Below, piece by piece: positions 5,196 through 55,310 of a DNA stretch of 64,000 nt. The first letter of the stretch is position 1. Each line of letters opens with the position of its first letter. Below the pieces are notes generated by a model that worked only from the letters and a program-made list of their open reading frames with translations, did not search any database and had not been told where the DNA came from. The position numbers and the translations under genes are program-made. Origin of the DNA: Patescibacteria group bacterium (GTDB lineage Bacteria > Patescibacteriota > Patescibacteriia > Patescibacteriales > UBA12465); assembly GCA_041671365.1 (NCBI GenBank), contig JBAZBP010000002.1, forward strand, positions 1,052-65,051. The letters run 5' to 3'.

Positions 5196-5267
5196 AAAAT
5201 TTTCCTGCTTATAATTTTTGTAAATTATCTTAATGTATATTTAAATTATACCATAAAACTAACTAAT

Positions 5268-6837: not shown

Positions 6838-6910
6838 TACATTTTTTATTTTTATGGTATAATTACTATATAAAATATAAATTTGCTTGTCAAACAATAA
6901 TAAAAAATAT

Positions 6911-7429: not shown

Positions 7430-7472
7430 TAAGATAACAATAGTTTTGTCCTAAACAACTAGGAACAAATAA

Positions 7473-7547
7473 GCATTCATCGTTCAACGGATAGGACGTA
7501 AGCTTGCGGAGCTTGAGATCCAGGTTCGATTCCTGGTGGATGCACCA
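7473..7547 (+). tRNA. tRNA-Arg (anticodon GCG), CCA encoded
   Basis: Acceptor GCATTCA/TGGATGC, D stem GTTC/GGAC, anticodon loop TTGCGGA, T arm CCAGG-TTCGATT-CCTGG, then A-CCA. Confidence 0.85.
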
Positions 7548-7563
7548 CTAAAAGCCGTTTTGT

Positions 7564-12092: not shown

Positions 12093-12101
12093 TAGATAAT
12101 T

Positions 12102-12713: not shown

Positions 12714-12735
12714 ATATTTAATTATGAACTATTAA

Positions 12736-14634: not shown

Positions 14635-14635
14635 A

Positions 14636-15316: not shown

Positions 15317-15325
15317 ATATTATAT

Positions 15326-15757
15326 TTATTCTCCTTGATACTTTCCCTTAGTGTCGACAATTAAAGCTAATTCGGCTAATCGAGACCTTTTAAAAACTTT
15401 AGGCGGCAGAACCGACGACTTAAAGTTATCAACCGATACTTTTTCCTCTTCACCTTCCGAAGATCCCTGATGATGCCAAACTCTTAAATTCGGGCGACGC
15501 CAGGTTTGAACAGCATTTAAAACAAAAAAATGAAACGGGCGGCCGTTAATTTTAACAAAGGCAAAAAGCACCATGACAACGAAAACTATTATTGTAATCG
15601 TTATAAATAAAGAAAAATCAACCAATTTGTAACTGATACCGCAAATAATCGCTCCGACCAAAAAAATCATAAATTGCCGCGTCGTAATCGGACCGATAAT
15701 TTGATTTTCAACATCAATAAATTGAGGAACTGTAAATTGTTGCATATAATCACCCAA
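15326..15757 (-). CDS. PrgI-family (VirB3-like) membrane protein
   Basis: 143 aa. The N-terminal QQFTVPQFIDVENQIIGPITTRQFMIFLVGAIICG pattern and two TMs match the PrgI/VirB3-like family as I remember it. Confidence 0.7.
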   Translation of the reverse strand: MGDYMQQFTVPQFIDVENQIIGPITTRQFMIFLVGAIICGISYKLVDFSLFITITIIVFVVMVLFAFVKINGRPFHFFVLNAVQTWRRPNLRVWHHQGSSEGEEEKVSVDNFKSSVLPPKVFKRSRLAELALIVDTKGKYQGE

Positions 15758-15772
15758 AAAATACGTTAAAAA

Positions 15773-17308: not shown

Positions 17309-17318
17309 GACTAATTTT

Positions 17319-30000: not shown

Positions 30001-31880
30001 GGTTTTTCTTTAATACAGGTTTGCCCGTCGGCGCAATAATTATCCGCCCTAAGAATATTTAAGGTGCTGGGAGTGGAAGAAACGGAGGCGTTTCCTTCTA
30101 TTCCCTGCGTAACCGTCGTACTTAAGAGTTGCGCGCCAAACCCCTCTTTTTGGCAATAATTAAGCGGTGCCTTTAAAACCCAGTTAGGATCGACCAATCC
30201 TTGGCACCAGGTCGTGTCAGATCCAAAATCTTGACTAAAATTAGTATACTGATCAAGAGGATTAAAGCAGGAAACTAAATCATTTAAAGTTGCCCGATGA
30301 GGCGAGACCGGGTTGTTGGCGATTGAGGCTACCTCAGCCCAACCGATCGGTAAAATCCGATACTTAATAAGAATACTAATATTTCTTAAAGAATACTCGC
30401 TGTTATAAGCGTCTCCAGAATCACTGTTAGTTACTTGCCAGTCGCCGTGTAAGGAGCCGTCATTGATAGCCTCGATTACAGTTTTCTTTTCGGAAATCGC
30501 CTGCATAAACGGACTATCAATAACACAGTTATCCGGCCCGGGATTTTTTGAATCTTGACAAACCGCCAAAGACGATAAAATATCATAATCCGCCTGCGTA
30601 CCAAAATTAGGTTTAAGCAAGGCGGTTGTAACCTGCTTCAAGGCTGTAGCTCCTCGACCGCTATTAGGATCGCTGGAATAACCGGAACCGCCGCCGACGG
30701 CATTATTACCGTTATCCTGCTTTCCCAAACTCTGTACTAATTTATTAAAGGCGGATACGGCTAATTGATTTAAAAAGACATTGGCGGCATCCACAAAAAC
30801 ATCGGTAGTAATTTTTCCGATATTGCCGGCTTTAATAGCGTCCGCCTCTTGTAGGGTTCTCTCTGCCGTTCCCGGAGGAGCTGCGGAATCACCGGCAATA
30901 TTAGTAACATTCAACCATCCCTTATTGGCAATGAATCCGGTTTCAGAATTTTTTACATTAACTAAGGCTTTATTAGATAAATCAGTTTTTGCCAAAACAG
31001 AAATACCGAGATCGTTGGCCTGAGGGTCAAAATATTGAGCCAGATTATTTAAATAATCGCCCGAACGCAAATCAGCCAATTTTTTATTAATATCCGTGTC
31101 CCAGGTTGTAATCATTTTTGACAGAGTACAGTTAGGCGGGGCTGGACGAGTTTGCTGAACAAGTCCTAAACCTATTTGGACCTTAGCCATTAAAGATGAA
31201 GGACTGCAAACATTAAAAGACGGAGTAGTCTCTTTCATGGCGCCTGCGACATCATTAGTAGTACCGGTAACTGCACAGGAAGTGTTATTATTGGCACAAT
31301 TACGGAAACAGCTTTGAATAGCTGTGGAATCCTGTCCACTGTTTTGGAGATTATACCCATAGTCTCCGGTATAATTATTTTGATCTTGACTATTCGATAA
31401 TTGAGCACTGCAAGAAGCATTACAATCTGTTAATTCTTTATCACAAGACTTTTGGTCTACAGACCGATTTAAATTATTGACAAAACTTTCTACGAACGTT
31501 CCCATCGCTTCATCACCAATTTGATTTAAATAAGCTCCAATATTTTGAGTAACAAACAAAGGTTTTTGGCCGGAACCACCAGAACCGATATAATTAGCGG
31601 TATCATAAGCAATTTTATTAAGAGCCGTACTCAATGTCCGCTGAAAAGCGATTGCCCCGGCTTTCTTCCATAAAAAATCGGCACCATCCTTAACCTTCGT
31701 CCATACCCAATCGGCGTAACCAACAACATCGGCCACAACTGTAGTCGCTAATTGCGCGTGAACCGGTTTAGGCGGTGCAGCGACAATCACTAATAACAAA
31801 CAAAAAATCAAGAAAAAACTTTTAATTTTTTGACTGAATCTTAATTTTTTATTTTTTTCCGGCTCGATTAAATTTCTCAT
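24009..31880 (-). CDS. Giant (2623 aa) Cys-rich secreted/surface protein with CBM-like modules and a PKD-like C-terminus
   Basis: Single uninterrupted ORF with an N-terminal signal/anchor. Four N-x-x-F-E/D-type module starts are present: NLVMDSDFNNEE, SFDNFESGLNGW, NLVNNPSFTTTTEGTEGW and VSNGDFEDKP. The C-terminal IDIDWGDGKIQTI...HIFYHNY is PKD-like. Confidence 0.85.
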   Translation of the reverse strand: MRNLIEPEKNKKLRFSQKIKSFFLIFCLLLVIVAAPPKPVHAQLATTVVADVVGYADWVWTKVKDGADFLWKKAGAIAFQRTLSTALNKIAYDTANYIGSGGSGQKPLFVTQNIGAYLNQIGDEAMGTFVESFVNNLNRSVDQKSCDKELTDCNASCSAQLSNSQDQNNYTGDYGYNLQNSGQDSTAIQSCFRNCANNNTSCAVTGTTNDVAGAMKETTPSFNVCSPSSLMAKVQIGLGLVQQTRPAPPNCTLSKMITTWDTDINKKLADLRSGDYLNNLAQYFDPQANDLGISVLAKTDLSNKALVNVKNSETGFIANKGWLNVTNIAGDSAAPPGTAERTLQEADAIKAGNIGKITTDVFVDAANVFLNQLAVSAFNKLVQSLGKQDNGNNAVGGGSGYSSDPNSGRGATALKQVTTALLKPNFGTQADYDILSSLAVCQDSKNPGPDNCVIDSPFMQAISEKKTVIEAINDGSLHGDWQVTNSDSGDAYNSEYSLRNISILIKYRILPIGWAEVASIANNPVSPHRATLNDLVSCFNPLDQYTNFSQDFGSDTTWCQGLVDPNWVLKAPLNYCQKEGFGAQLLSTTVTQGIEGNASVSSTPSTLNILRADNYCADGQTCIKEKPDGSCEVYGYCNGEKRTWNFNTDSCEPVNNTCQSFTGVNGQAVAYLQNTLNYNNCNSSNAGCRQYSLSGIYATSTGTVSWSTSNSLYLNKSLGTCSSPDNGCTELMRVKSTWGNNLVMDSDFNNEELGSVSNSGTKLNDWPLINIEEASIVQDPVSGDGKVLKLAVDASAAGGVSSNPENSLLPANFQIVTGQFYTMSADVYLENAGSVSLTVGSGSNYDMTTAVMGSWQHLNVTRSADSSFNDPNFVILGSAGITFYVKNLKFEASDWDTGYTAYGQTTSGSARIYEKLLPNYLEKTCYNNVSSAVKDYTLKSDAPAVCSAFARKCNQDEVGCDSYTNIKDYFVVTAKVASNDYCPAECLGYDVYISKGSYFNSAETENIIPATATKCSAEAAGCSEFTNLDSLAQGGEQKEYYTSLKQCIKPSTTQCASFYAWEGQASGYQLQAYSLKKDAGGTPATTAGYNPALCTADIYNKPVNDPLFNPDCREFYNASGTVAYLLSSQTITCSDNCHTYRMTDKNIDSSGNTVCLNGGTWDATSESCFYSAIPGEGQTCRASENGCREYNGSTGSNVRVISFDNFESGLNGWSSSTCFSISPISNNKDGHSLHNTCVSGEATSSVSGLVNQGSAYTLRFLGLAPTDTTLTVSFRNKDTGTKTDFSPIVIKGGSGWNIYRANLTDLDQSVGNNEELVINGGGEFYLDDFVLSEISDRYYLIKNSSQISDSCYYDLAGNYQGADYNLGCAQYTDRNNLKNNLHKFTKLCSDSAVGCEQMIDTKNYSPYGSGFWEGGVATTTCNVADPNCVMVPGDSALYAVYDAKKQCNAVNLGCSRLGQGQGGNSLIGFSDVFKLNNPNQYETILCNSGDVGCETWTNKDNNSVNYFKDPGNNVCVYRAANNASVGSKKWYKIPAKRCDLNKDKSISGSAEVDGPICLSDSDCGTGAGSCILDKTDHECAYSVFKTIGLGGGGVPIPSTDAGICDVASSGCTEYIDPVTRFNPNLVNNPSFTTTTEGTEGWGDVSLGAWSSTLTPTQQVIALEPYKLYSLNVTNGSGSGVILDFTVSVRQLLSDNNFGAATTSLAAATTTNVPVIFDSLEATSTRLSGGAIGRTIEVRELAVDYQLQSKIDKTSCTKQAQFNNGCVLFNERGVSGASGLTGLDYDAYATNNRATNDPNPLVPSSCSGNSCTANEVIKVSPNRVCSRWLSCTSYTQDPITKKKTCYAYNECNSLDNQGECNNYTTPLTGTTTTAVDGNATGYSLYNNYNLGQMEVVGRKLTVSNGDFEDKPDLTTCATKPCPCTSSNNSDRCLIDNPDVADSYGTDHPAHGKTYLMVPLGKEYTLGVSSDLAITSGDYFINYLVNTKKSNGAEAQVTITNASGAPIKTFSSISGLDWTREIHRFTLTNIAGIQVKVSHDGAPGTSPVYFDDIKIEPVLKISNDKYVASECRLYPTGDSLTCVSKNKNTITSGLEGYCLEHDPANPSVCLLWYPMDNVPTNNFKSNGYHGPTPLSYATEVSGNFDLVEKREAYLYYAKQEGGKCWDPEGDNTNLNGRPQDLASCQGDSNYFNFYYKFNCTNDNNCCYFEWCIPKTNSKVTVEATHSTSLQRTFDFTSVGIKSLNLQDAQLTKDYEYFNEHVSLNFWLTLTLPSQSSNGWYVYDGLNNVEKTLGETVSDGLQPIRIYDYTKNPLPSAETDLTLLKNFKLNYQDKSVQVVDDMGNNKAWVERVKNIDSYPTSTPPFFHFFATPYNLMKYESDINTFPFGSYGSNQGRPYGCSNSKSCGLIGSCTVEPNGPNTYCVASSSATMTSFDSDFFIAQSCGTGLGTCQPLWTRAYPLINTPSLLPYKNILKNIFLQGNNGADYSFTPPHCITSDTGLPNNVRPNCVDSNSCLKAFCSVYPTIFNFHLYSNDNNGNNVTPITGNKATSKGWYRLEFNSIVDPEQQPLKSIDIDWGDGKIQTITNQDNAPATSSPHIFYHNYLKIPDTAVHATTTDNWGFTGSQ

Positions 31881-33721: not shown

Positions 33722-36181
33722 TTATTTAACGACAATATTCAACAATTTCCCGGCCACAAAAATATTTTTAACTATTTCTTTCCCCTCCAGCCATTTTTTA
33801 ATTGTTTCATTCTCGGCAGCCAATTTTATTGCTTCGACTTCGGAAATATCGGCTGCCACCTCTAAGGTCGCTCTCAATTTACCGTTAACAGAAATAACTA
33901 AATTAACCGTTTCGTCTTTAATTAATTGAGGATCATACTCCGGCCAAGAAGATTTAAAAATACTTTCCTGATGACCTAATTTCTCCCAAAGTTCTTCGGT
34001 TAAGTGCGGCGCAAAAGAAGCCAGAATTAAAATAAATTTTTCTAAATTATTTTGACTTACCGGCCAAACATTATTTTTTGTTTTATATTCTCCTAAATTA
34101 TTAACAAAAATCATCAGGGCGGAAATAGCGGTATTATAGTGAAAATTTTCAATATCTTCCCCGACCTTCTTTATAGTTTTGTGAAGCAGCGCCACTATTT
34201 TCTGATCATCCGCCCCGGAAAAATTTTCTCCCAGGTTATAAATTTTCTCCAAGAAACGACTAATTCCGATAATTCCCCGGCTGCTCCAAGGTTTCATGTC
34301 TTCTAGGGGCCCCATAAACATTTCATATAAACGTAAAGCATCGGCGCCATGACCGGCAATCAGTTCGTCCGGATTAACGACGTTACCCTTAGATTTCGAC
34401 ATTTTATTTCCATCCTCGCCTAAAATAATTCCCTGATGGCGCAGTTTTAAAAATGGTTCGTTAAAAGAAACGACGCCATATTTTTGAAGAACTTTGGTAA
34501 AAAATCTAACATAGAGCAAATGCATAACCGCGTGCTCCGCTCCGCCCATATAAACATCAACCGGCAACCAATATTTAAGCAAATCAGGATCCGCGATAGC
34601 CTGGCTATTTTGACAATCGACATAACGCAAATAATACCAAGAAGAACAAACAAAAGTATCCATCGTATCGTTTTCTCGACGCGCCGCTGCGCCGCATTTC
34701 GGACACTTAACCTGCTGAAAGCTCGAAGAATATTTTAAAGGTGATTCGCCGGTCGGACGAAAATCCACGTCCGTCGGCAACAATACCGGTAAACTTTCTT
34801 CCGGTACCGGCACTTCCCCGCACTGCTCGCAATAAATAATCGGAATCGGCGCGCCCCAATAACGCTGACGCGAAACCAGCCAATCGCGCAAACGATAATT
34901 AATTTGCGCTTGTCCTTGTTGGCTGTTAATTAAAAATTTGGTCATTTCTTCACGGGCGGCGGCGGAAGTTAAACCGGTAAATTGACCGGAGTTAATTAAT
35001 ATTCCCTCGGCGGTATAAGCGGAGTCAAAAATTAATTCCCGGTCAGGAGTTTTTTGATCGTTAGGGACAATCACTATCTTAATAGGAAGCCGATATTTTT
35101 TAGCGAACTCCAGATCGCGTTCATCGTGGGCCGGAACCGCCATAACTGCTCCGGTACCATACGAAGCTAAAACATAATCGGCTAAATAAATTTTAATTTC
35201 CTCCTGGTTAAAAGGATTAACTGCCGTTAAGCCGGCCAAAACTACGCCGGTTTTATCTTTGTTTAAATCTGTGCGCTGTAAATTAGTTTTAACCTCAGTC
35301 ATTTCTAAATACCGATCCACTTCCGACCAATTAGTAATTTTATCTTTTAAATTAACGACTAAACTATGTTCCGGAGCCAAAACGACATAAGTGCAACCAA
35401 AAATAGTATCCACCCGAGTCGTAAAAACTTTAATTATTTCCGTCGTTCCTTTAATTTTAAAAGTAATTTCAGCGCCGACGCTCCGGCCGATCCAGTTACG
35501 CTGAGCCGCTTTAGTTGAAGACGGCCAATCAATCTCGTCCAGTCCATTAAGCAAACCCTTAAGTTGACGGCCTTCATAAGTTTGGTCTTCGATAAAATCA
35601 GTAATCTTAAAAAACCATTGCTCTAAATCCTTTTGAATCACTTCATTGCCGCAACGTTCGCAGTGACCGTCGACTACCTGTTCATTGGCTAAAACCGTCT
35701 GACAGCTCGCACACCAGTTAACTTGCGCCTTTTTCTTATAAGCTAAACCATTTTTATACATTAAAAGAAACAACCATTGGGTCCATTTATAATAGGCGGG
35801 GTCGGAAGTATTAACGGTCTTTTCCCAATCATACGATAGACCGAGCGAATTCATCTGTTTGGTAAAAGTCTCAATTGCTTTTTTGGTCGTTTCCACCGGA
35901 GAGATTCCGGTTTTAATCGCGTAATTTTCGGCCGGTAGGCCGAAGGAGTCAAAACCTTGAGGATGAAAAACATTAAATCCGCGAGCGCGATAATAACGAG
36001 CATAAATATCGGTGGCGGTATATGACTCGACATGACCGGCGTGCAAGCCCGCCCCCGAAGGATATGGAAACATGTCCAAAATATAATACTTGGGTTTAGC
36101 TCGGTCTGTTTCGGTTTTATAGAGACCGCCGTCCAGCCAGCGATCTTGCCATTTTTTTTCTATTTCTTGGTGGTTATACAT
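33722..36181 (-). CDS. leuS: Leucyl-tRNA synthetase
   Basis: 819 aa with PYPSGAGLHAGHVESY (HIGH-type), KMSKSKGN and a CP1 editing-domain length. Confidence 0.95.
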   Translation of the reverse strand: MYNHQEIEKKWQDRWLDGGLYKTETDRAKPKYYILDMFPYPSGAGLHAGHVESYTATDIYARYYRARGFNVFHPQGFDSFGLPAENYAIKTGISPVETTKKAIETFTKQMNSLGLSYDWEKTVNTSDPAYYKWTQWLFLLMYKNGLAYKKKAQVNWCASCQTVLANEQVVDGHCERCGNEVIQKDLEQWFFKITDFIEDQTYEGRQLKGLLNGLDEIDWPSSTKAAQRNWIGRSVGAEITFKIKGTTEIIKVFTTRVDTIFGCTYVVLAPEHSLVVNLKDKITNWSEVDRYLEMTEVKTNLQRTDLNKDKTGVVLAGLTAVNPFNQEEIKIYLADYVLASYGTGAVMAVPAHDERDLEFAKKYRLPIKIVIVPNDQKTPDRELIFDSAYTAEGILINSGQFTGLTSAAAREEMTKFLINSQQGQAQINYRLRDWLVSRQRYWGAPIPIIYCEQCGEVPVPEESLPVLLPTDVDFRPTGESPLKYSSSFQQVKCPKCGAAARRENDTMDTFVCSSWYYLRYVDCQNSQAIADPDLLKYWLPVDVYMGGAEHAVMHLLYVRFFTKVLQKYGVVSFNEPFLKLRHQGIILGEDGNKMSKSKGNVVNPDELIAGHGADALRLYEMFMGPLEDMKPWSSRGIIGISRFLEKIYNLGENFSGADDQKIVALLHKTIKKVGEDIENFHYNTAISALMIFVNNLGEYKTKNNVWPVSQNNLEKFILILASFAPHLTEELWEKLGHQESIFKSSWPEYDPQLIKDETVNLVISVNGKLRATLEVAADISEVEAIKLAAENETIKKWLEGKEIVKNIFVAGKLLNIVVK

Positions 36182-36196: not shown

Positions 36197-36306
36197 GGAC
36201 GAAGTAGCATTTTTCCGCTTCGGTTTTTTCTGTGAGAAAATCTTTCGGCCTACGGCCTCGATTTTCTTTGACGAAAAAACAGGCGCTCCAAAATATTACT
36301 TCGTCC
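36197..36306. repeat. Structured intergenic repeat, copy 1 (divergent)
   Basis: Outer stem ggacgaagta/tacttcgtcc. The core shares TTTTTCCGCT, TTTTCTG, GACGAAAA, CGCTCC and AAAA with copies 2 and 3, and has compensating stem changes. Confidence 0.6.
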
Positions 36307-36347: not shown

Positions 36348-37115
36348 TTAGTATAATTCCAGTCCAATCGGCGCATGATCGGAACCAGTAATTTTATCTA
36401 AAATATAAGCTTTTTTTAACAGTCTCTTAAGTTTAGCCGAAGCGCAGAAATAGTCAATTCGCCAGCCGACATTACGCGTTCGGGCTCCGGCGCGCCAGCT
36501 CCACCAGGAATATTGAATCTTTCGGCTATGCAGCTCACGAAAAGTATCGATAAAACCGGCGACTAAAAATTTGTTAAACCAAGTCCTTTCTTCTTTGGTA
36601 AATCCGGCCGATACTTCGTTTTCCCGCGGTCGGGCCAAATCAATTTCGGTATGAGCGACATTAAAGTCTCCGGTGACGATCACCGGTTTTAATTTTTCTA
36701 ATTTTTTTACACATTTTAGCAGAGCGTCATTAAATTCCAGTCTATAAGGTAAACGCGATAACTCTTGATTGGCATTTGGAAAATAAACATTCAATAAATA
36801 AAAATTTTTTAATTCCACGATCTGCACTCTTCCCTCGATATCAAATTTAGCGACACCTAAACCATTTTTGACTCCAATAACCTGATTAAATCCGGCTCGA
36901 ACTAAAACGGCCGTACCGCTATAACCGGGACGATTAGCACAATTCCAATATTCAGTAAATCCGTCAAAATCAAATTCCGTTTCATTCCTGATCGTGTCAG
37001 AAATTTTTATCTCTTGCAAACACAAGATATCCGGTTTTATCCGCCGCAAAAAGGGTTGAAAACCCTTTTTACTTACCGCTCGGATACCATTAATATTCCA
37101 AGAGATTATTTTCAT
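36348..37115 (-). CDS. xth: Exodeoxyribonuclease III (AP endonuclease)
   Basis: 255 aa with MKIISWNINGIRA, LCLQE and GSDHAPI. Confidence 0.9.
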   Translation of the reverse strand: MKIISWNINGIRAVSKKGFQPFLRRIKPDILCLQEIKISDTIRNETEFDFDGFTEYWNCANRPGYSGTAVLVRAGFNQVIGVKNGLGVAKFDIEGRVQIVELKNFYLLNVYFPNANQELSRLPYRLEFNDALLKCVKKLEKLKPVIVTGDFNVAHTEIDLARPRENEVSAGFTKEERTWFNKFLVAGFIDTFRELHSRKIQYSWWSWRAGARTRNVGWRIDYFCASAKLKRLLKKAYILDKITGSDHAPIGLELY

Positions 37116-41123: not shown

Positions 41124-42005
41124 ATGTTAAATACAGAAAAAAAAATAAATAAATTTCTCTCCCCCGGCCATAGCGCCTGTGCCGGTTGCGGACAATTAGT
41201 CGCCGTCCAGGCCGTGATGCGAGGATTAAATAAAGAAACAATCATCGCTAATGCGACCGGCTGTTTAGAAGTAACAACTACCGCTTATCCGCAGAGTGCT
41301 TGGGGTTTACCCTGGATTCATTCTTTATTTGAAAATTCTTCTGCAGTCTCCTCCGGAATTTTGGCGGCTCTGAAACAAAAAGGCGATACTAAAACTAAAG
41401 TAGTTGTTCAAGGCGGCGACGGCGGGACGTTTGATATTGGAATCGGACTGATTAGCGGAATGTGGGAAAGAGGTGAAAATATTTTATATATCTGCTACGA
41501 CACCGAAGCTTATTCTAACACCGGAATTCAGGCTTCCGGCGCTACCCCTTACGGCGCCAATACGACAACTACGCCGAGCGGGCTTCAATCTGTCGGTTCA
41601 AAACAAACAAAAAAAGATATGTTGGCTATCGCCCTGGCGCATGGCCTTGGATATGTCGCCCAAAGTACGGCCGGATTTCCGGATGACATAACTAACAAAA
41701 TCAAAAAAGCTTTAGTCGCGCCCGGTCCAAGCTATATCCAAATCTTATCACCCTGTATTCCGGGATGGAGAATAAATACCGATGAAGCGGTCATGATGGG
41801 AAAATTAGCGGCGGCCACCGGACTTTACCCCTTGCTGGAATATACGAACGGGCAATTAACGACTTCAAGCATTAATAATAATTTTAACGCCAAACCCGCA
41901 AACGAATATTTAAAAAAACAAGGGCGTTTTAAACATCTCCAAGCTGAAGATATCGCCGCCATCCAGAAGCTGGCCGATGAAAATATAAAAAAATATAAAA
42001 TATGA
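41124..42005 (+). CDS. porB: 2-oxoacid:ferredoxin oxidoreductase beta subunit (TPP-binding)
   Basis: 293 aa with CAGCG and GDGGTFDIG. Confidence 0.88.
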   Translation: MLNTEKKINKFLSPGHSACAGCGQLVAVQAVMRGLNKETIIANATGCLEVTTTAYPQSAWGLPWIHSLFENSSAVSSGILAALKQKGDTKTKVVVQGGDGGTFDIGIGLISGMWERGENILYICYDTEAYSNTGIQASGATPYGANTTTTPSGLQSVGSKQTKKDMLAIALAHGLGYVAQSTAGFPDDITNKIKKALVAPGPSYIQILSPCIPGWRINTDEAVMMGKLAAATGLYPLLEYTNGQLTTSSINNNFNAKPANEYLKKQGRFKHLQAEDIAAIQKLADENIKKYKI

Positions 42006-42388
42006 AGACGACGCGGTTATTACAATCGATTCTGATATTTTCTCTTCTGTTATTGGCGCGACAGGCCAGCGCAAATTGCATGTGGACTACTCATAATCAA
42101 TGTATAGATATCGGAACAAGCAATGATTGGGCTTCATCGACTGAAACTAATTGTAATATTAATCAAAAACCAGCCGGTACGACTAAGTGTTGCTGCGCCG
42201 ACTCCATTCTCGGGTGTTGTGAAAAAAAAGACAATCTCGGAACCATTACAACCGCCAATATGCTTGGCGAGAATTGCCAAAATATCACAACTGCCAGTAC
42301 AACTTTTTTTCAAGATTTTCTAGCTGATAATAATACTTGCAAAGATAAAAATTCTTCTAAAACTACCGGCTCTAATAGCGCCAGCGGC
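42002..42388 (+). repeat. 387-bp perfect direct repeat, copy 1
   Basis: Line-by-line comparison with 43479-43865 found no differences. The identical spurious track ORFs at 42123..42323 and 43600..43800 corroborate this. Confidence 0.9.
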
Positions 42389-43465
42389 GATTGCTCTTGG
42401 AAAGCAATAAAAACAGAACCTTTCGGTGTATCGGGCGGATGCGATACCGCCGGTGGTGAAAAAAATGGAAATACTTGCTCGGCCAGCACAAAACCATCAG
42501 ACTCGGCCATCGCTCAAGCTAATGTATCTTTTACTTACGTCTGCTGCTGCAAGCCGACAGTTGCGGCGCCCGTCTTCACTCCCCCGAAGTTTATTTTGCC
42601 AAATATCCAAATTTCAATTCCCGGACTAAACCTGACGACCAGTTCAATCCAATCGGAATTAAACGCTGACGGATCTTATACCGTTAGCGTTCCCTGGATC
42701 GGTCAATATATTGGCGGTATTTATAATTACGGCGTCGGTATTGCCGGAATTTTAGCGGCAATAATGCTGATGGCCGGCGGGGTTCTCTGGCTCATTTCGG
42801 CCGGTGATGCTTCAAAAATAACGCAAGCCAAAGAATTAATTACCGGCAGTATTACCGGATTAATTATTTTAACAACCTCTTATCTTCTGCTTTATACTAT
42901 TAATCCGGAATTGACCCAATTTAAACCGATTGATCTGGGGGCAATAAAGAGAGAAGAATTTGAGGGAGACAATAATTCTCCAAGTGTTACTCTGGATATG
43001 GTCAAGATAGCCTCTACTTTAGGCGTTAATTGCGGCCAAGATTCTATCAGTCAAATAGTTACTAAAGCAAAAGGCAAGGCCACTTACAGCCAAGAAAATA
43101 GAACCAAAGCCGCCCCGGGCGGTTTTGTATATTTAGATTGTTCCAGCTTCGCCAGTTTTGCGCTGAAGTGTGCTACCGGTAAAAACAGCGGCCAACGTAG
43201 CGCCGATATCTTTAGTGAACAAAAAATTTGGGATCAAAAATTAGAAAGCCTACAACCCGGGAATATGATCGGATGGGCTCCTAAAAATAATAAAAATAAT
43301 AGTGGACATGTGATAATATATATGGGCAATGGGATATTTGGCGATTGTCATTCGGGTTCCGGCAAGCAACCGGGAAATTGCATCAGTAATTCAATTAGCT
43401 TTGAAAAAATAAAAAATTACGCCACCAGTCATTCTGATGGAAAATTATATTTCAAAAGTTACTAA
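42002..43465 (+). CDS. T4SS-pilin-like domain protein fused to a C-terminal NlpC/P60 peptidoglycan endopeptidase
   Basis: 487 aa with a signal peptide, two CxW...CCC modules and a pilin-like helix pair. The C-terminus reads YLDCSSFASF...PGNMIGW...GHVIIYMGNG (Cys/His catalytic pattern). Confidence 0.75.
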   Translation: MKTTRLLQSILIFSLLLLARQASANCMWTTHNQCIDIGTSNDWASSTETNCNINQKPAGTTKCCCADSILGCCEKKDNLGTITTANMLGENCQNITTASTTFFQDFLADNNTCKDKNSSKTTGSNSASGDCSWKAIKTEPFGVSGGCDTAGGEKNGNTCSASTKPSDSAIAQANVSFTYVCCCKPTVAAPVFTPPKFILPNIQISIPGLNLTTSSIQSELNADGSYTVSVPWIGQYIGGIYNYGVGIAGILAAIMLMAGGVLWLISAGDASKITQAKELITGSITGLIILTTSYLLLYTINPELTQFKPIDLGAIKREEFEGDNNSPSVTLDMVKIASTLGVNCGQDSISQIVTKAKGKATYSQENRTKAAPGGFVYLDCSSFASFALKCATGKNSGQRSADIFSEQKIWDQKLESLQPGNMIGWAPKNNKNNSGHVIIYMGNGIFGDCHSGSGKQPGNCISNSISFEKIKNYATSHSDGKLYFKSY

Positions 43466-43478
43466 AATAATTTTTAAT

Positions 43479-43865
43479 ATGAAGACGACGCGGTTATTAC
43501 AATCGATTCTGATATTTTCTCTTCTGTTATTGGCGCGACAGGCCAGCGCAAATTGCATGTGGACTACTCATAATCAATGTATAGATATCGGAACAAGCAA
43601 TGATTGGGCTTCATCGACTGAAACTAATTGTAATATTAATCAAAAACCAGCCGGTACGACTAAGTGTTGCTGCGCCGACTCCATTCTCGGGTGTTGTGAA
43701 AAAAAAGACAATCTCGGAACCATTACAACCGCCAATATGCTTGGCGAGAATTGCCAAAATATCACAACTGCCAGTACAACTTTTTTTCAAGATTTTCTAG
43801 CTGATAATAATACTTGCAAAGATAAAAATTCTTCTAAAACTACCGGCTCTAATAGCGCCAGCGGC
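43479..43865 (+). repeat. 387-bp perfect direct repeat, copy 2
   Basis: See copy 1. The offset is 1477 bp. Confidence 0.9.
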
Positions 43866-44957
43866 AACTGTCAATGGGAAAAAGGCAATTTTTCTCTAAA
43901 TTTTGAAAACCGCTGTGATTATCTACAAATGATATCGACTAAAGATGAAACTAAATGTGCCAAATCAGAAAAAATAGTTCTAGTCTCTACTGAAGAGGCT
44001 ACCTATCAGAACACCTGTTGCTGTCCAATTGCCAAACTCGCTCCTGTCACCTTCACTCCCATTAAACTTATCACGCCCAACATTCAAATTCCCATTCCCG
44101 GGCTGACATTAACTCCGGCCGATTCAATCCAGCCGACGGAAAACTCTAACGGATCTTTTTCTCTCAGTATTCCCTGGATTTCCGAATATATAATCGGTAT
44201 TTATAATTATGGCACCGCTATTGCCGGAATTTTAGCGGCGATAATACTGATGGCCGGCGGGGTTCTCTGGCTTATCTCGGCCGGTGATGCTTCAAAAATA
44301 ACGCAAGCCAAAGAATTAATTACCGGCAGTATTACCGGATTAATTATTCTAATTTCTTCCTATCTTATTCTTTATACGATCAGTCCGGAATTGACGATAT
44401 TTAAATCAATTAATATCGGGACGGTTCAACATGAAGATTTTAAATTTGCCGAAGCAAAACTCGGCTCTACGGCCGAACAATTTAAAAATATGACCTGCGC
44501 CACAGAAGCAGAATTAACTAATGGAATTGAGTTTTACGCTACGGGTTATTTTAAAATGCCTTGGCAATCGGCGCAAGACATAAAATATCTTTGCATGGTG
44601 CACATGCAGGGCACCTGCCCTAACGGCATAATGAAAGATCAACAATGTATTGAAAATAAACAATTTATTTTTCCTGATTATCCGAATTATCAACCCTGCG
44701 AACCATTTTCATCTGATCTATATAATAAATATTTTAATGACCCAAAATTGAAAGTCGGTGAAACTATCGCCGGGCCGATAAATTGCGGAGGCAGTTTATC
44801 TATGGGCAAACAAGTATGTTTTAATGGAAAAACTTATACGATAGCTGATAGCGGCGGCGGCATTCAGGGAAGAAGAATAGATATTTTAAGTTCCTCAGAA
44901 AAAGATGCCCTTAACAACACTAAGCAAGGAACTTTAAAATCCGGTGCCTGCAAATAA
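43479..44957 (+). CDS. T4SS-pilin-like domain protein fused to a C-terminal 3D (MltA/RlpA-like) domain
   Basis: The track start 43437 overlaps the previous gene. ATG 43479 reproduces the identical MKTTRLLQSILIF signal peptide. The C-terminus reads GETIAGP...GKTYTIADSGGGIQGRRIDIL, the 3D-domain pattern. Confidence 0.75.
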   Translation: MKTTRLLQSILIFSLLLLARQASANCMWTTHNQCIDIGTSNDWASSTETNCNINQKPAGTTKCCCADSILGCCEKKDNLGTITTANMLGENCQNITTASTTFFQDFLADNNTCKDKNSSKTTGSNSASGNCQWEKGNFSLNFENRCDYLQMISTKDETKCAKSEKIVLVSTEEATYQNTCCCPIAKLAPVTFTPIKLITPNIQIPIPGLTLTPADSIQPTENSNGSFSLSIPWISEYIIGIYNYGTAIAGILAAIILMAGGVLWLISAGDASKITQAKELITGSITGLIILISSYLILYTISPELTIFKSINIGTVQHEDFKFAEAKLGSTAEQFKNMTCATEAELTNGIEFYATGYFKMPWQSAQDIKYLCMVHMQGTCPNGIMKDQQCIENKQFIFPDYPNYQPCEPFSSDLYNKYFNDPKLKVGETIAGPINCGGSLSMGKQVCFNGKTYTIADSGGGIQGRRIDILSSSEKDALNNTKQGTLKSGACK

Positions 44958-45362
44958 TTACTTCCCCCGATCCATCGCCTCATTCGCCAGCCGATCCGCC
45001 TCCTGATTATTCTCCCGCGGAATATGCGTATAAGTAATTTTCTTATAAGCTAAAGAGAGATTATAAATAGTTAAAAACAAAGGCGCCAGGTCTTTGTTTT
45101 TTACTTTATATTCATGTCTTAATTGTTTAACTACCAATTCACTATCCAGATAACAGTCGAGCTCCGTCGCGCCCAGTTCAGTCGCTTTTTTAAAGGCCGC
45201 AATCAGAGCGCGATATTCCGCCTGATTATTAGTCGCTACGCCTAAAAATTCGGAAATCTCCGCGATGACTTTTTTATGTTCATTATAGAGAACCGCGCCG
45301 ATCCCGGCCGGACCGGGATTACCGCGCGCTCCGCCATCGGTATAAATTATTAATTTGTTCAT
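44958..45362 (-). CDS. rnhA: Ribonuclease HI-family protein
   Basis: 134 aa with IYTDGGARGNPGPAGIG, NNQAEYRAL, DSELVV and NQEADRLAN. Confidence 0.85.
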   Translation of the reverse strand: MNKLIIYTDGGARGNPGPAGIGAVLYNEHKKVIAEISEFLGVATNNQAEYRALIAAFKKATELGATELDCYLDSELVVKQLRHEYKVKNKDLAPLFLTIYNLSLAYKKITYTHIPRENNQEADRLANEAMDRGK

Positions 45363-45392: not shown

Positions 45393-45511
45393 AATTTTAT
45401 AGGAATTATGTTTTTCCCGCTAGTTCTTTTCTGGGGAAAAAAGTCGCGAAACGCTCCTTTTTTCTGGACGAAAAGAACAATCGCTCCTTAAAACATAATT
45501 CCTATAAAATT
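45393..45511. repeat. Structured intergenic repeat, copy 2
   Basis: 18-bp perfect outer stem aattttataggaattatg/cataattcctataaaatt enclosing the 83-nt core 45411-45493. Confidence 0.7.
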
Positions 45512-45518: not shown

Positions 45519-47303
45519 CTATACCATACTACTAATTCTTATATCTACGATCTTTAACTGCGCTTCCCTTCGGCCGTTAAATTCATTAATTTCTAAATAA
45601 TAAACCAAATCGATTAAATCGCCAATATTAAATTTTTTATATTCTTGTGCCGCTCCAAAGGCTAGAGCCCAAAAAGCGTTCATTTTCCCCGTCAACGGAT
45701 CCGCCGCCGACAAACGCAGTTTAATATGTTGATCATCAAATCCCATAGTCACAATATCGTCCAGACGCAAATTATAACTGACAAACCGCGGCTGAGGATT
45801 GTTTTGGCCATAAGGTGCGAGACTATTAATTTGATCGGCTAAATCTAAAGAAATTTCTTTAAATTCCAACTCCGCCTCTATTTTTAATTTAGGAATTAGA
45901 GCGGTCGAGTCTAACTGTTTCGCGGCTAAAGCGAGCATCTGTTTTTTAAAAGCCTCTAAATTTTTTTCACTAATTAAAGAAAAGCCGCAAGCCATCGGAT
46001 GCCCGCCGTACTTATCCAGATACTCGGCACAAGCTTCAATGGCCGCAATTAAATTAAATCCTTCGATTGAACGTCCCGAACTTTTAAAAGCTATTTTCTT
46101 AGGAATTAATTTTTTAGTTTTCGAATCAAATTCCGCTTCTTCGATCAACCGCGTAATAATTAGAGTCGGCCGGTAATATTTTTCCGCGATTCGCCCGGCG
46201 ACCAATCCGATGACTCCTTCATTCCAAATCTGATCCGAACCGGCGACACTGATAATCACCAGGGGTAAATTAGTAGGATCGATTTGCGCTTCCACTTGAG
46301 CGGTAATTTCGGCGGTAATTTTCTGTCGACTGATATTACGCTCATTGAGTTCATTCGCTAATTCTTTGGCCTCGGCCGGATCAGTCGTGGTTAATAAAGC
46401 GAAGGCACTATTAGCGTGCGCTAGGCGACTGGCGGCATTTAATCGCGGTCCGATTTGCCAGCCGATATTCCAAGCTTCCAGCGATCGACCGCTGTTAATT
46501 TTAGCAACTTTAATTAATTCATTTAATCCCAAACGCTTGCCGATATTTAAAATTTTTAAGCCATCTTTAACCAGTTGACGATTTTCTCCTAAAAGACTAA
46601 CCATGTCGGCCACCGTGCCGACCGCCACTAAATCTAAACATTTATCGCTGATTAATTTTTTTTGGGCTTCAGTAACATTAGCTTTAGTAAGCAGAGCGCT
46701 AACCAATTTAAAAGCCACGCCGACTCCGGCCAAATATTTCCAAGGATAATTATCTCGCGTATCGGACGGATTAATATAAAGACAGGCCGGCAAATCCTCC
46801 TCTTTTTCCGGAAGAATATGATGATCGGTTATAATAACGTCTAGTCCCAATTTTTGTGCATAGGCGACTTCATCTTTATTCCTTATGCCATTATCAACCG
46901 TAATTATTAATTTAAAACCCTGCTCTACGATAGAATTAATCGCCGCTTTATTTAATCCATAGCCCTCGGAAACTCGATCCGGCAAATAAACTTCCGCCAC
47001 CCCATGCAAAATATTCAAAGTCTCCAGTAAAATAACGGCCGAGGTTACTCCGTCGGCATCATAGTCGCCATAAACCACAATCTTATTCCCTGATTTAATA
47101 TGTTTAATTATTAAATCCACGACGTTCGTCATGTTTTTAAATAAGAAAGGATCGTAAAAATCTGTGTCGCTAAAAATTGCCCGCATGTCCGCCGTTTCTT
47201 TTAAACCGCGATTAAAAAGCAGCTGGAGCATGAGCGGATTAACATCCGAATGAGCGGCCAAAAACTCCGAACTAATTTTAGGTAATACTTGCCAGTTTTT
47301 CAT
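45519..47303 (-). CDS. recJ: Single-stranded-DNA-specific exonuclease RecJ
   Basis: 594 aa with DYDADGVTS, ITVDNG and ITDHH (DHH family). Confidence 0.9.
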   Translation of the reverse strand: MKNWQVLPKISSEFLAAHSDVNPLMLQLLFNRGLKETADMRAIFSDTDFYDPFLFKNMTNVVDLIIKHIKSGNKIVVYGDYDADGVTSAVILLETLNILHGVAEVYLPDRVSEGYGLNKAAINSIVEQGFKLIITVDNGIRNKDEVAYAQKLGLDVIITDHHILPEKEEDLPACLYINPSDTRDNYPWKYLAGVGVAFKLVSALLTKANVTEAQKKLISDKCLDLVAVGTVADMVSLLGENRQLVKDGLKILNIGKRLGLNELIKVAKINSGRSLEAWNIGWQIGPRLNAASRLAHANSAFALLTTTDPAEAKELANELNERNISRQKITAEITAQVEAQIDPTNLPLVIISVAGSDQIWNEGVIGLVAGRIAEKYYRPTLIITRLIEEAEFDSKTKKLIPKKIAFKSSGRSIEGFNLIAAIEACAEYLDKYGGHPMACGFSLISEKNLEAFKKQMLALAAKQLDSTALIPKLKIEAELEFKEISLDLADQINSLAPYGQNNPQPRFVSYNLRLDDIVTMGFDDQHIKLRLSAADPLTGKMNAFWALAFGAAQEYKKFNIGDLIDLVYYLEINEFNGRREAQLKIVDIRISSMV

Positions 47304-47308: not shown

Positions 47309-47410
47309 TTATTGAATAAAGCCAACGGCCGCAGTCCAGGCCACCATCGACAGAACCACAATACTAGAAAGAATAATCCACAAAATTTTAATCACTTTTC
47401 GTCTTTTCAT
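47309..47410 (-). CDS. Possible 33-aa membrane peptide
   Basis: Hand-read MKRRKVIKILWIILSSIVVLSMVAWTAAVGFIQ. It fills the lepA-recJ gap, but there is no other support. Confidence 0.25.
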   Translation of the reverse strand: MKRRKVIKILWIILSSIVVLSMVAWTAAVGFIQ

Positions 47411-52452: not shown

Positions 52453-53166
52453 CTAGTTATGTTTGCCGAATAAGTATTTTAATCCAACCAGTACCGTCTC
52501 TAATCCATATTTCAGACTTCGTCTAAAATTAATCGATGACGCTTCCGGAAAATAACGGACCGGCACGGGAATTTCGCCAATTCGGTATTTCTTGGCAACA
52601 ACCTCAAATAAAACCTGGCTATCAAAAACAAAATCATCGGAATTCTTTAGCCAATCAATGTTCTGCAAAACCTCTTTTTTATACGCGCGCATACCAGTAT
52701 GCCATTCCGATAAATTTTGCCCGCTTACAAAATTTTCAAAAATAGTCAAAACGCGATTAGATATGTATTTATACAGAGGCATCCCGCCGGCTAAAGCTTC
52801 GTGGCGGCTCCTAATCCGCGTGCCGAGCATTACGTCAAAATAATCATCCCCGATAAATTCCGCTAAATATTTAACTAGTTTCGGATCATATTGATAGTCC
52901 GGATGAATCATCACAACAATATCGGCCCCATGATCAAGTGCTAAACGATAACAGGTTTTCTGATTAGCGCCATAACCGCCGTTGGTTTCATGGATAAAAA
53001 CAAACAGGCCGAGACGACGCGCCAAGTCAGCCGTCTCGTCATGGCTGGCGTCGTCAACCAAAATTATTTCATCAACCAGGGCCGGCAAATCTTTGACTGT
53101 CCGTTCTAAAGTACCGGCGGCATTATAAGCCGGTAAGACCACGATAATTTTTTTAGAATTGTACAT
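52453..53166 (-). CDS. Family 2 glycosyltransferase (polyprenol-phosphate sugar transferase-like)
   Basis: 237 aa with [12 protein letters not shown] and VDDASHDET. Confidence 0.85.
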
Positions 53167-53174: not shown

Positions 53175-53291
53175 TAGCCAGATGAAATAATATTTTAAGG
53201 AGCGATTGTTCTTTTCGTTAGGAAAAAAGGAGCATTTCGCGACTTTTTTCCCCAGAAAAGAACTAGCGGGAAAAACATTATTTCATCTGGC
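53175..53291. repeat. Structured intergenic repeat, copy 3 (inverted relative to copy 2)
   Basis: 16-bp outer stem agccagatgaaataat/attatttcatctggct. The core 53191-53275 equals the reverse complement of the copy 2 core at about 79 of 83 positions by hand alignment. Confidence 0.7.
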
Positions 53292-53309
53292 TTAACACAA
53301 TTTCAATGG

Positions 53310-55310
53310 CTATAGAATAATTCTAACATCTCCCGCCGAAACCCCCTTCTCTGTTACAAATAGCGGATTAATATCCAATTCTGATATTTCCGGATGTTCA
53401 TTAGCTAAACGCGCTAAATTAACTAAGGCGTCAGCGAGCGCAATAATATCATATTTTTTCTGGCGTCGCGCCCCGTTTAAAATCGGATAAATCTTTAACG
53501 CGCCGATGAGTTCCAAGGCGCGTGTCCGATCTAAATCACTAATCGCTAATTTAAAATCCTTGAATACTTCCGTATAAATTCCCCCCTGTCCGATCATCAT
53601 AATCGGTCCAAAAGCGCTATCGCGCTTAAAACCTAAAATAATTTCCTGAAACTTAGTTGCTTGCGTCTGGATTACCAAATAATTTTTCGAATTATTTAAG
53701 GCCGAACGATTCTTTGTCTGTAAACTCGAAACGGCCGCTTTTAACTCCGCCACATTTTTTAGATTAATTACCACGCTGCCCGTATCGGTTTTATGTAAAA
53801 AATCCGGACCGGTAATTTTAAGAACTACCGGATATTTATAAGTCTTTAAGTACGCCGGCGAAAAACGAGTAGTTTTAACCACCGGGATTTTATATTGTTT
53901 TAATAAACGAAAAGAAGCTAAATAATCATCAGTCGTGATTTTAGCTTTTATTTTAAAAGAAAATCGCTTATAGGGTCTGATATTTTTAAGTGTCTCTTTG
54001 TAAACGATTAATTTTTTAAAACTGCGCACCGCTTCTTCCGGAAAATCAAATGTCGGAATATTGTTTTTAGCGAATAGGGCCCGGGCCGATTGAACATCTC
54101 GACCGCCGACAAAACTGGTCATGATTAATTTATGCGGATATTTTTTCGCAATGGCCACAATCGCTTCAGCCGTTTTTAGGGGTTCCGTGGAAGTTTGCGG
54201 CGTCAACAAAACTAATAAATTATTAATTTTTTTATCGGCGAGAGCTTTCTTAATAGCAGCGTCATAACGCGCCGCATCGGCATCGCCCAATAAATCCTGA
54301 CTATGACCAAAAGGCAAATTCTGACGACCAACTTCGTCGGCGGTTAAAACTGCCACCCCTCCAGCGTTAGTTATTAAGTAAAGTTCTTGCCGTCCAAGAT
54401 TATGCCAAGACTCTTTACGAAATAGCAACAACAAATTAAACAACTCTTCTAAATTTTCTAACCAAATCGCTCCGGCTCGTTCTAGCCCGGTTCGTACTGC
54501 CGCCGCCGAACCGGCCAATGATCCGGTATGAGATAAAGCTAGCTGGCTGCCGGCCGCGCTAATTCCGGATTTAAGAACGGCCACCGGCTTATGTTTAGAT
54601 AAACGCGAAACTATCTCCATAAATCGCTGGCCGTCTTTAATTTCTTCCAAGTAAGCGACAACCAGATCAATCCGCGAATCATGAGCCAAATAATCCAAAA
54701 TTTTATTTTCATCAATCACCGCTTGATTGCCTAAGCTAATAAAATAACCGAAATTAAAATCTTTAATTTTCAACCAATCGAGGGCCGCGGCACCGATCGC
54801 GCCGGATTGCGATAATAGTGCACTATTACCGGTTTCTTTATCGGCCGCCGCAAAAGTAGCGTTCAAATGCTGCCAGGTATTGATCAAACCCAAACAATTT
54901 GGTCCTAAAATATTAAGTTTATGTTTCCGGGCTAATTTAATTATTTCATTTTCCAAGGAAAGGCCCTCCGGACCATTCTCTTTAAAACCGGCCGTAATGA
55001 TAATAATATTTCTAATACCCAAAGCCGCACATTTTTTCAGTTCCGTTAAAACTAAACTGGCCGGAATGGCAATAATTACCAATAGCGAAGCATAATCTAC
55101 TGTCGGCAAATTGGCCAAATCGGCATAGGCAGGCAAACCGGCCACTTTCGATTCTTTTAAATTAACCGGATAAATTCGTCCCTTAAAGCCATTTTTGATT
55201 ATATTATCTAAAATTTGTCGGCCTAATTTAGCCGGATTAGCGGAAGCGCCGACAATTGCGACCGCTCGCGGATTAAAGAAATAATTTAAAGACATAGATT
55301 TATATAACAC
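53310..55310 (-). CDS. Acetate--CoA ligase (ADP-forming), fused alpha/beta type
   Basis: 666 aa with an N-terminal CoA-binding region NPRAVAIVGAS, succinyl-CoA-synthetase-like flavodoxin domains and a C-terminal ATP-grasp. Confidence 0.88.
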   Translation of the reverse strand: MLYKSMSLNYFFNPRAVAIVGASANPAKLGRQILDNIIKNGFKGRIYPVNLKESKVAGLPAYADLANLPTVDYASLLVIIAIPASLVLTELKKCAALGIRNIIIITAGFKENGPEGLSLENEIIKLARKHKLNILGPNCLGLINTWQHLNATFAAADKETGNSALLSQSGAIGAAALDWLKIKDFNFGYFISLGNQAVIDENKILDYLAHDSRIDLVVAYLEEIKDGQRFMEIVSRLSKHKPVAVLKSGISAAGSQLALSHTGSLAGSAAAVRTGLERAGAIWLENLEELFNLLLLFRKESWHNLGRQELYLITNAGGVAVLTADEVGRQNLPFGHSQDLLGDADAARYDAAIKKALADKKINNLLVLLTPQTSTEPLKTAEAIVAIAKKYPHKLIMTSFVGGRDVQSARALFAKNNIPTFDFPEEAVRSFKKLIVYKETLKNIRPYKRFSFKIKAKITTDDYLASFRLLKQYKIPVVKTTRFSPAYLKTYKYPVVLKITGPDFLHKTDTGSVVINLKNVAELKAAVSSLQTKNRSALNNSKNYLVIQTQATKFQEIILGFKRDSAFGPIMMIGQGGIYTEVFKDFKLAISDLDRTRALELIGALKIYPILNGARRQKKYDIIALADALVNLARLANEHPEISELDINPLFVTEKGVSAGDVRIIL

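Follow-up and report, generated by a model that had tools for sequence, protein, structure and literature searches.

We report that a 64,000-nt stretch of the metagenome-assembled genome of a Patescibacteria group bacterium (contig JBAZBP010000002.1 of assembly GCA_041671365.1), referred to as the window herein, contains three copies of a previously undescribed intergenic repeat family, a hairpin-forming element of ~120 bases that occurs in a Falkowbacteria-related clade of the Patescibacteria. Using patterns and covariance models, we collected 14 distinct copies of the element in ~330 kb of Patescibacteria/Falkowbacteria DNA. Relative to related genomes the element is an insertion, old at some sites, whose base pairing has been maintained in place. 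Comparison of orthologous sites further shows that established copies are inherited vertically for long periods and lost in many lineages, and that the asymmetric core of the element has repeatedly been inverted and exchanged between copies. The interpretation that we favor, and that we rate at about even, is that the family consists of non-coding, hairpin-forming interspersed DNA repeats, closest to REPINs and other small palindromic repeats, which are maintained in a single-stranded or cruciform state.

The first copy, c1, is an entire hairpin element of 119 nt at 45393-45511 of the window (plus strand), in the gap between the genes for RecJ and RNase H. The second, c2, is likewise entire; it spans 117 nt at 53176-53292 on the minus strand and lies between an acetyl-CoA-synthetase-like gene and that of a family 2 glycosyltransferase (GT2). 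The third, c3, spans 110 nt at 36197-36306 (plus strand), lies between an xth-like gene and that of LeuRS, and belongs to a subfamily that we term B. Their covariance model scores are 124.9, 125, and 84.6 bits, respectively. c2 runs on the strand of its neighboring genes, whereas c1 and c3 run opposite to theirs. A first-pass annotation of the window had listed three related copies, and its positions hold for c1 and c3; its second copy, at 53175-53291, was one base off. It had also placed each copy in the gap after the stop of a minus-strand gene (recJ, the acetyl-CoA synthetase, and xth), and the gene calls agree with this: every copy in the window is flanked by tandem minus-strand genes and stands close behind the stop of the upstream one. 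The intergenic gaps that hold c1, c2, and c3 measure 156, 143, and 166 nt, as against 0-50 nt for most others in the window. The shared-motif pattern matched the window at c1, c2, and c3 only (chance expectation 0.01), and the covariance model, run with filters off, found no further copies in the 64 kb.

Each of the three copies folds as one rod-like hairpin of stacked stems, as had been proposed from the letters alone. The z-scores of c1, c2, and c3 were -8.0, -11.2, and -6.3 when folded as RNA and -8.7, -9.0, and -5.4 when folded as DNA, and no shuffled sequence was as stable in either case. On the element strand, the parts follow one another from 5′ to 3′ as P1, J1/2, P2, J2/3, P3, J3/2, the 3′ strand of P2, J2/1, and the 3′ arm of P1. 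P1, the outer stem, is a nearly perfect palindrome of 13-23 bp, UUUU/AAAA included. J1/2 reads UUUUUCC(C)GCU plus 1-3 nt and leads into P2, which comprises 7-9 bp, typically GUUCUUUUC/GAAAAGAAC. J2/3 reads UGK, J3/2 reads NNAC, and between them stands P3, which has a GGNAAAA/UUUUNCU base and a top that varies in length and sequence. Lastly, J2/1 reads A(AU/GG)CGCUCC(UU)AAAA.

As mapped on c1 (plus strand), the 5′ arm of P1 is AATTTTATAGGAATTATG (45393-45410), of which the distal 10 nt are locus-specific and the proximal GAATTATG is common to the family. J1/2, TTTTTCCCGCTA (45411-45422), is the conserved 5′ strand of a large internal loop, although its leading four T pair with AAAA at 45490-45493. 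After the 5′ strand of P2, GTTCTTTTC (45423-45431), comes the variable hairpin P3 (45435-45465), which is closed by a conserved G.U pair and has GGNAAAA/UUUUNCU at its base and GCG-AAA-CGC at its apex. The 3′ strand of P2, GAAAAGAAC (45470-45478), directly follows the conserved AC of J3/2, and J2/1, AATCGCTCCTTAAAA (45479-45493), completes the large internal loop as its conserved 3′ strand. The 3′ arm of P1, CATAATTCCTATAAAATT (45494-45511), forms 18/18 Watson-Crick pairs with 45393-45410. In c2, the 5′ arm of P1 occupies 53276-53292, the core 53193-53275, and the 3′ arm 53176-53192, all on the minus strand; in c3, the P1 arms at 36197-36209 and 36294-36306 enclose a core at 36210-36293 (plus strand).

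Several details of the first-pass description required revision. The apical GCG-AAA-CGC hairpin that it assigned to its second copy sits in its perfect form in c1, whereas c2 has GCGAAATGC. Two of its conserved unpaired motifs, TTTTTCC(C)GCT and CGCTCC(TT)AAAA, are indeed conserved family-wide; the other two, CTGGGG and TCTGGACG, are conserved only as CUG.GG and CU..ACG and are partly paired. Outer stems that it took to be perfect at 18, 16, and 10 bp are made up of 18 Watson-Crick pairs in c1, 16 Watson-Crick pairs and one G.T in c2, and 10 perfect and three imperfect pairs in c3. Nor are these stems unrelated between copies, as it had stated. In all copies, the 8-9 bp of P1 next to the core follow GAAWTWATG / CATWATTTC, and the conserved TTTT/AAAA pairs come next; only the distal 4-10 bp and the termini are locus-specific, and these differ in every copy. 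Similarity between c1 and c2 covers 97 nt and so exceeds the ~83-nt core that had been described. The conserved unit is ~97 nt, an asymmetric core of 80-100 nt together with a shared ~13-bp inverted end (GAAWTWATG-TTTT ... AAAA-CATWATTTC) that lies inside a longer, locus-specific P1. This shared inverted segment within the outer stem makes the proposed contrast with miniature inverted-repeat transposable elements (MITEs) weaker than stated, though the very ends do vary. The proximal P1 stems of c1 and c2 are one indel and one substitution apart, both of which are compensated on both arms. By their large loop, the copies fall into three subfamilies, A, A', and B.

Covariation across the family argues for a structured element selected for pairing, one of the two explanations that had been offered at the outset. 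In an alignment of all 14 copies, which was fitted to the covariance model, 93.7% of the cells were paired, compared with 73.9% in shuffled alignments and 47-57% when the partners were slid. Double changes were present in 25 of the 39 pairs (17/21 in P1, 3/7 in P2, and 5/9 in P3), and an independent MAFFT/RNAalifold analysis of 11 copies yielded compensatory changes in 22/39 pairs. In P2 (helix 3), 100% of cells are paired. The loops are conserved more than the stems, and the base pairs around the second loop are invariant. Under the covariance model the element strand scores 2-3 times the reverse strand in every copy, and therefore the lack of complementarity between the two sides of the large loop is itself conserved. 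The G.U pair at the base of P3 is kept on one strand in 12/14 copies. Mismatches in P1 comprise ~4 G.U vs 12 A.C on the element strand and have no link to the direction of transcription; with no G.U excess, we dropped the inference of a strand from P1 wobble pairs.

We found no consistent promoter or terminator sites at c1-c3; none of the three carries a terminator-like site, and the G+C-rich stem with a U run that marks an intrinsic terminator is absent from them. A 27-codon open reading frame (ORF) that starts with an ATG where P1 meets the core and stops at the TAA of CTCCTTAAAA is present only in c1, c2, and copy L034; in the window it occupies 45408-45492 and 53194-53278, and its product in c1 is MFFPLVLFWGKKSRNAPFFWTKRTIAP. 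We rejected a small protein because the frame is interrupted in copies L014 and L005a and there is no ATG in c3, L032, L043, L053, or L067. A Shine-Dalgarno-like AAGGAG on the reverse strand, with a TTG after it, was likewise rejected, as no conserved ORF follows. Such repeats could be misannotated as small ORFs or RNA genes.

The family was assembled in two steps. Exact-pattern scans of a genome collection and of a metagenome collection, one each, gave eight distinct real copies beyond the three of the window, in Falkowbacteria GW2011_GWF2_43_32, in another Patescibacteria metagenome-assembled genome, and on five metagenome contigs. Most of the pattern matches were chance matches in unrelated phyla and were discarded on inspection, and since the collection scans used one strict pattern, divergent members were missed. 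A covariance model built from 11 copies added L005:4005-4137, L067:11780-11893, and L069:12395-12507, and a second model built from all 14 found nothing more in the ~330 kb of Patescibacteria loci. No copies were detected with the covariance model in 854 kb of viral contigs. In viral contigs the full pattern gave one match that we judged to be chance, and 15-mers of either loop led to 100 loci of which 0 fit the model. Only three of the 14 copies come from one genome, and copy density is apparently low (0-3 per 20 kb). The relatives of the window carry the label Candidatus Falkowbacteria; the nearest one available has ~79% RecJ identity to the window, and hence no recent insertion was dissected.

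All 14 copies sit between co-directional genes; these are housekeeping genes whose spacers are otherwise tiny, and the copies often begin at or near the upstream stop codon. With respect to the flanking genes, eight are co-oriented and six are opposite. That no known family matches, as the first-pass annotation had supposed, is borne out by our searches: an Rfam search of the window at gathering thresholds returned two tRNAs only, E-value searches of Rfam with c1 and c3 gave a best E of 0.12 and nothing but microRNA-like hairpin noise, blastn of c1 against plasmids and phages gave no match, and we found nothing relevant in the literature on such an element in Patescibacteria. Separately, Logan unitigs L058:1-44 and L060:2000-2074 (run SRR18595301) equal the window sequence around c1, and both stop inside c1 in a stretch that is identical between c1 and c2. 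Because these unitigs end within c1, the repeat is one that breaks short-read assemblies.

We then compared filled and empty sites in the syntenic loci of relatives that share 74-79% RecJ identity with the window. The RecJ (45519-47303)/RNase H (44958-45362) gap, between minus-strand genes as are the next two, is filled in the window and in L067; it is empty in L059 (21 nt), L061 (15 nt), L064 (genes overlap), L069 (20 nt), L171 (16 nt), L172 (11 nt), L174 (18 nt), and L175 (10 nt). For the gap between the ADP-forming acetyl-CoA-synthetase-like gene (53310-55310) and the GT2 gene (52453-53166), the window and L043 are filled, and the site is empty in L059 (3 nt), L061 (3 nt), L064 (6 nt), L067 (2 nt), and L174 (3 nt). 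Between the xth-like Exo_endo_phos gene (36348-37115) and the LeuRS gene (33722-36181), the element is found in the window and L069, and the empty gaps of L059, L067, L174, and L175 measure 6, 7, 19, and 2 nt. The fourth site, between EF-G and an ORF termed orf119, is filled in L014 and L034 and reduced to 6 nt in L177-L179, where the empty site reads GGAAAGTAAaaatatATG. Presence or absence is thus polymorphic at four sites, each filled in two genomes and empty in one to eight relatives. The 22-kb RecJ region of L174 lacks the element.

None of the empty gaps at the four sites (0-21 nt, up to eight genomes each) contains a palindrome, which runs counter to the second explanation offered at the outset, that a small element inserts into the loops of pre-existing hairpins. 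Nor does the window contain any perfect AT-rich hairpins of 16-18 bp that stand on their own; weak covariance model matches at 744-782 and 24446-24487, considered as empty palindromes, proved to be ordinary AT-rich hairpins without GAAWTWATG. In L067 the palindrome provides a new RecJ stop codon, whereas in the sister L064 RecJ and RNase H overlap in ATGA. Because the palindrome with this new stop is extra compared with L064, the whole palindrome was part of the addition in L067. The 4-nt ATGA in L067, tried as a target-site duplication, is accounted for by keeping the RNase H start codon. Unrelated to the element, a tandem repeat of AGACTAGATT x 4.6 occupies the xth/LeuRS gap of L061 (20352-20396). 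CAATCAG occurs three times beside a P1 arm in L043 (1002-1030 with 1120-1150), and one P1 arm of L019 is interrupted by a 7-nt insertion, GGCGCCA. These short repeats, which stand precisely at the place of the element or of its arms, and the insertion suggest slippage-prone arms or relics of lost elements.

Orthologous copies show how the element changes in place. c3 and its ortholog L069:12395-12507 agree in orientation and in the boundaries of P1, and their flanks are homologous (GCCAGGAAYAWTAATTWAAGAAWATGA on one side and GAAT on the other). Between them P1 has undergone two double changes, from C-G and G-C to A-T and A-T, and P2 another two, from TTTTTTC/GAAAAAA to TAATTTC/GAAATTA. These two genomes are not sisters, since LepA and RecJ put the window nearest L061 and L069 with L064 and L067. 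An orthologous pair in non-sister genomes means that the element predates the group and was lost several times. L005b and L042 share the RuvX/RecO gap and the same orientation. The flanking proteins of the genomes in the pairs c3/L069, L014/L034, and c2/L043 are 64-94% identical.

At two or three other orthologous sites the core has turned. In the case of L014 and L034, the gap is that between EF-G and an orthologous small ORF (64% identical), and the flanks and P1 arms are homologous, with 15/17 identical positions per arm; the two cores are inverted with respect to each other, and P3 is different. The acetyl-CoA-synthetase-like and GT2 genes around c2 are orthologous to those around L043; these two copies have a right flank that is partly common (TGGCTAATTA vs TGGCTGATTA), and their cores are inverted as well. 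c1 and L067 share the same gap in opposite orientations and belong to different subfamilies. The cores of c1, c2, and L034 are identical at 78-79/83 positions with wholly different distal P1 stems, whereas the cores of L014 and L034 are only 71/83 identical despite their common P1. In these comparisons, the distal stem is tied to the locus and the core to the family lineage.

How might a hairpin repeat behave in this manner? Under the interpretation as DNA repeats, inversion and exchange of the core would occur via recombination or template switching across the palindromic arms. Pairing would be upheld in single-stranded or cruciform DNA, where one arm may be corrected from the other, where selection may act, or both. 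Such arm-to-arm correction goes by the name of quasipalindrome or template-switch correction. The constraint would then act on the single-stranded or cruciform form, most simply of DNA, because orientation is immaterial and compensated indels arise more easily by arm-to-arm copying than by mutation followed by selection. A putative trans-acting, structure-specific protein that copies or maintains the element may find its recognition surface in the conserved unpaired loops, together with the invariant pairs that surround the second loop.

A number of observations weigh against this interpretation. Neither the window ORFs of 1-33 kb nor the fetched loci showed a transposase or RAYT, and because of this no enzyme ties the element to mobility. 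Filled and empty sites, when compared, display no consistent target-site duplication or conserved terminal nucleotides. The pattern of conservation is the reverse of that in a classical MITE, in that loops exceed stems and ends are variable. With only three copies from one genome, no recent transposition has been caught, and the 95% identity of the c1 and c2 cores could reflect gene conversion instead of copying. A host function is suggested by the near-invariance of the loops and by the retention of a 120-nt insert over deep divergence in genomes that are streamlined, and the one-strand G.U at the base of P3 (12/14 copies) is the expectation for a functional RNA. A more specific proposal, which we put forward tentatively as an improbable one, is that the family is either a vertically inherited, flipping hairpin or cruciform whose conserved asymmetric loops are the site of a putative structure-specific protein, REPIN-like without a RAYT, or a new structured-RNA class. 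In the former case the candidate partner would be a transposase or recombinase that has been domesticated, or else a factor that acts in repair or in the nucleoid.

The main rival to a DNA repeat is a functional structured RNA, either a cis-acting element in operon mRNAs (for processing, for stability, or as an RNase III site) or a multicopy small RNA gene, with loops that bind protein or RNA. We consider this unlikely, though it shares much of the evidence: covariation is strong in all three helices, unpaired motifs are conserved, the G.U at the P3 base is conserved on one strand, orthologous copies are kept across deep divergence with compensatory changes, and all 14 copies would be co-transcribed given their place between co-directional genes. 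However, the eight co-oriented and six opposite copies show no fixed orientation to transcription. Moreover, inversion of the core at the orthologous L014/L034 and c2/L043 sites implies that an mRNA would have different loop sequences at the same locus across genomes. The copies also lack a consistent promoter or terminator, a G.U excess in P1, and an Rfam match, and the element is missing from most close relatives at every site and so is dispensable.

Less probable again is a host-maintained DNA structure, that is, a cruciform or hairpin bound by a structure-specific protein for nucleoid organization, replication, or repair in an orientation-independent manner. With both extruded hairpins present at all times, one would expect to see the element in either orientation and flipped at orthologous sites; pairing is kept without a wobble bias, and the pairs around the second loop are invariant beyond structural need. 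Many neighbors also act in repair or recombination (RecJ, RNase H, RuvX, RecO, and xth), but a few old sites that are inherited vertically, together with RecJ-centered sampling, confound this enrichment. The element is missing from most relatives, no candidate binding protein was identified, and AT-rich cruciforms with 12- and 15-nt loops require supercoiling.

We disfavor, as very unlikely, the view that the ~83-97-nt core is a small mobile cassette that targets the center of pre-existing palindromes or hairpins. It would explain why distal P1 tracks the locus while the core tracks the lineage, as at L014/L034, where common P1 arms enclose different, inverted cores and the left arm starts with the native stop-codon context GTAAAA that is also present at the empty site of L177. 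However, the empty orthologous sites are devoid of palindromes, the window is devoid of comparable free-standing perfect hairpins, the whole palindrome with its RecJ stop is extra in L067 relative to its sister, and the shared proximal stem moves along with the core. The least probable alternative is an inverton in which a site-specific recombinase flips the core between inverted repeats and so changes downstream expression: a segment between inverted repeats does occur in both orientations at orthologous sites between genomes, the inverted-repeat consensus is common to dispersed copies, and the window encodes a large serine recombinase (5268-6776), but the core is without a consistent promoter, the internal helices P2 and P3 covary as no inverton needs, the recombinase lies in an integrated element beside a tRNA gene in a typical integrase setting, and housekeeping genes lie downstream (for example, those of LeuRS, RNase H, and AlaRS).

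If the improbable proposal of a cognate structure-specific protein holds, the family would represent a REPIN-like partnership of replicator and host in ultra-small Patescibacteria genomes with no RAYT. The genomes of Patescibacteria rank among the smallest and most streamlined in bacteria, with genes 0-20 nt apart, and the deep survival of a 120-nt hairpin in them needs explaining. The family also offers a compact natural system for the upkeep of pairing in imperfect palindromes, for flips and exchange of their centers, and for REPIN-like persistence without an obvious transposase.

Other features of the window deserve mention. Positions 1-8000, especially 3379-5067 and 5268-6837, have a low GC content (0.34 vs 0.40 elsewhere) and look like an integrated element. 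This region encodes a rolling-circle HUH Rep (PF23343) at 3532-4479, the sole HUH protein found; the Rep gene lies between 34-nt inverted repeats (3379-3412 and 5034-5067), and the 3′ end of the large serine recombinase gene overlaps tRNA-Ser(GCT) at 6746-6837. Rep homologs, up to 91% identical, occur on small contigs as well as on long Patescibacteria contigs. We considered a link of the repeat to this Rep and rejected it, as homologs are widespread in Patescibacteria (P0123 is 89% identical) with no evident association. Upstream of Rep, a strong long hairpin at 3425-3490 has perfect 14-bp arms (TTTTTCTTTTCGGC/GCCGAAAAGAAAAA) around CCCCC-GTA-GGGGG and could be a rolling-circle origin. It shares TTCTTTTC/GAAAAGAA composition with P2 of the repeat, and its covariance model score of 15 bits is not significant.

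A conserved, hydrophobic small ORF of 33 residues, MKRRKVIKILWIILSSIVVLSMVAWTAAVGFIQ, occupies 47309-47410 (minus strand), between LepA and RecJ; most syntenic relatives have a gene call of 29-33 residues for it. Within 41986-44415, two paralogous genes in tandem (42002-43465 and 43437-44957) have 300 nt in common at 99% identity, and their counterparts in relatives have weak T4SS_pilin matches. A type IV secretion-like cluster, including a TraG P-loop ATPase and a PrgI-family protein, occupies 10743-17389 and 24009-31880, with a giant ORF of 2623 residues downstream. Lastly, 560-800 is a G+C-rich, structured-looking non-coding stretch within a 404-nt gap; it ends in a hairpin with 31-nt arms (731-795) and has no Rfam or tRNA/tmRNA match.

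Among known systems, several families of MITE-like palindromic repeats invite comparison, namely Correia/NEMIS, ERIC/IRU, the Rickettsia palindromic elements, and bcr1 of Bacillus cereus. The present family resembles them in its length of 100-150 bp, in being AT-rich and non-coding, in its long hairpins within transcribed spacers, in its insertion in either orientation, and in its presence/absence polymorphism. In MITE-like families the terminal inverted repeats are conserved, and the target site is usually duplicated (TA for Correia and TTTAT for bcr1). By contrast, the termini of our family differ in each copy, no duplication is evident, and the internal unpaired loops are the best conserved part, so that the element does not qualify as a classical MITE. 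We also found no cognate autonomous insertion sequence with the same ends in the window or the fetched loci. As with integron attC sites, structure is kept over stem sequence, unpaired or extrahelical bases are conserved within an imperfect hairpin, and a terminal stem-loop is variable; unlike attC, the element has no RYYYAAC/GTTRRRY core sites at its ends, no cassette array or integrase, and housekeeping genes for neighbors. Hairpin telomeres and parvoviral terminal repeats provide a further analogy, as they too are imperfect palindromes with an asymmetric center that exist in two inverted-complement (flip/flop) orientations. Those, however, are termini of linear replicons that invert by hairpin-primed replication, whereas the sites of our family are internal and chromosomal.

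The closest parallel is with REPINs, which are REP doublets that form hairpins and are mobilized by RAYT transposases (Bertels and Rainey 2011, PMC3116915). REPINs have two conserved blocks and a spacer that evolves by compensatory changes, are predicted to form a hairpin in ssDNA or mRNA, and persist vertically over long periods (PMC3116915). Membership of our family among REPINs is not established. Its blocks, TTTTTCCCGCTAGTTCTTTTCTG and ACGAAAAGAACAATCGCTCCTTAAAA, are not palindromic, lack a GTAG-type motif, and form asymmetric unpaired loops; there is an extra, locus-specific, near-perfect outer stem, copy density is apparently low, and no RAYT/Y1 transposase was found, with no Y1_Tnp match in the scanned window ORFs or the fetched loci. 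What the two have in common is an extragenic hairpin of ~100 nt that occurs in both orientations and persists vertically, built from two conserved inverted blocks around a variable spacer with compensatory pairing.

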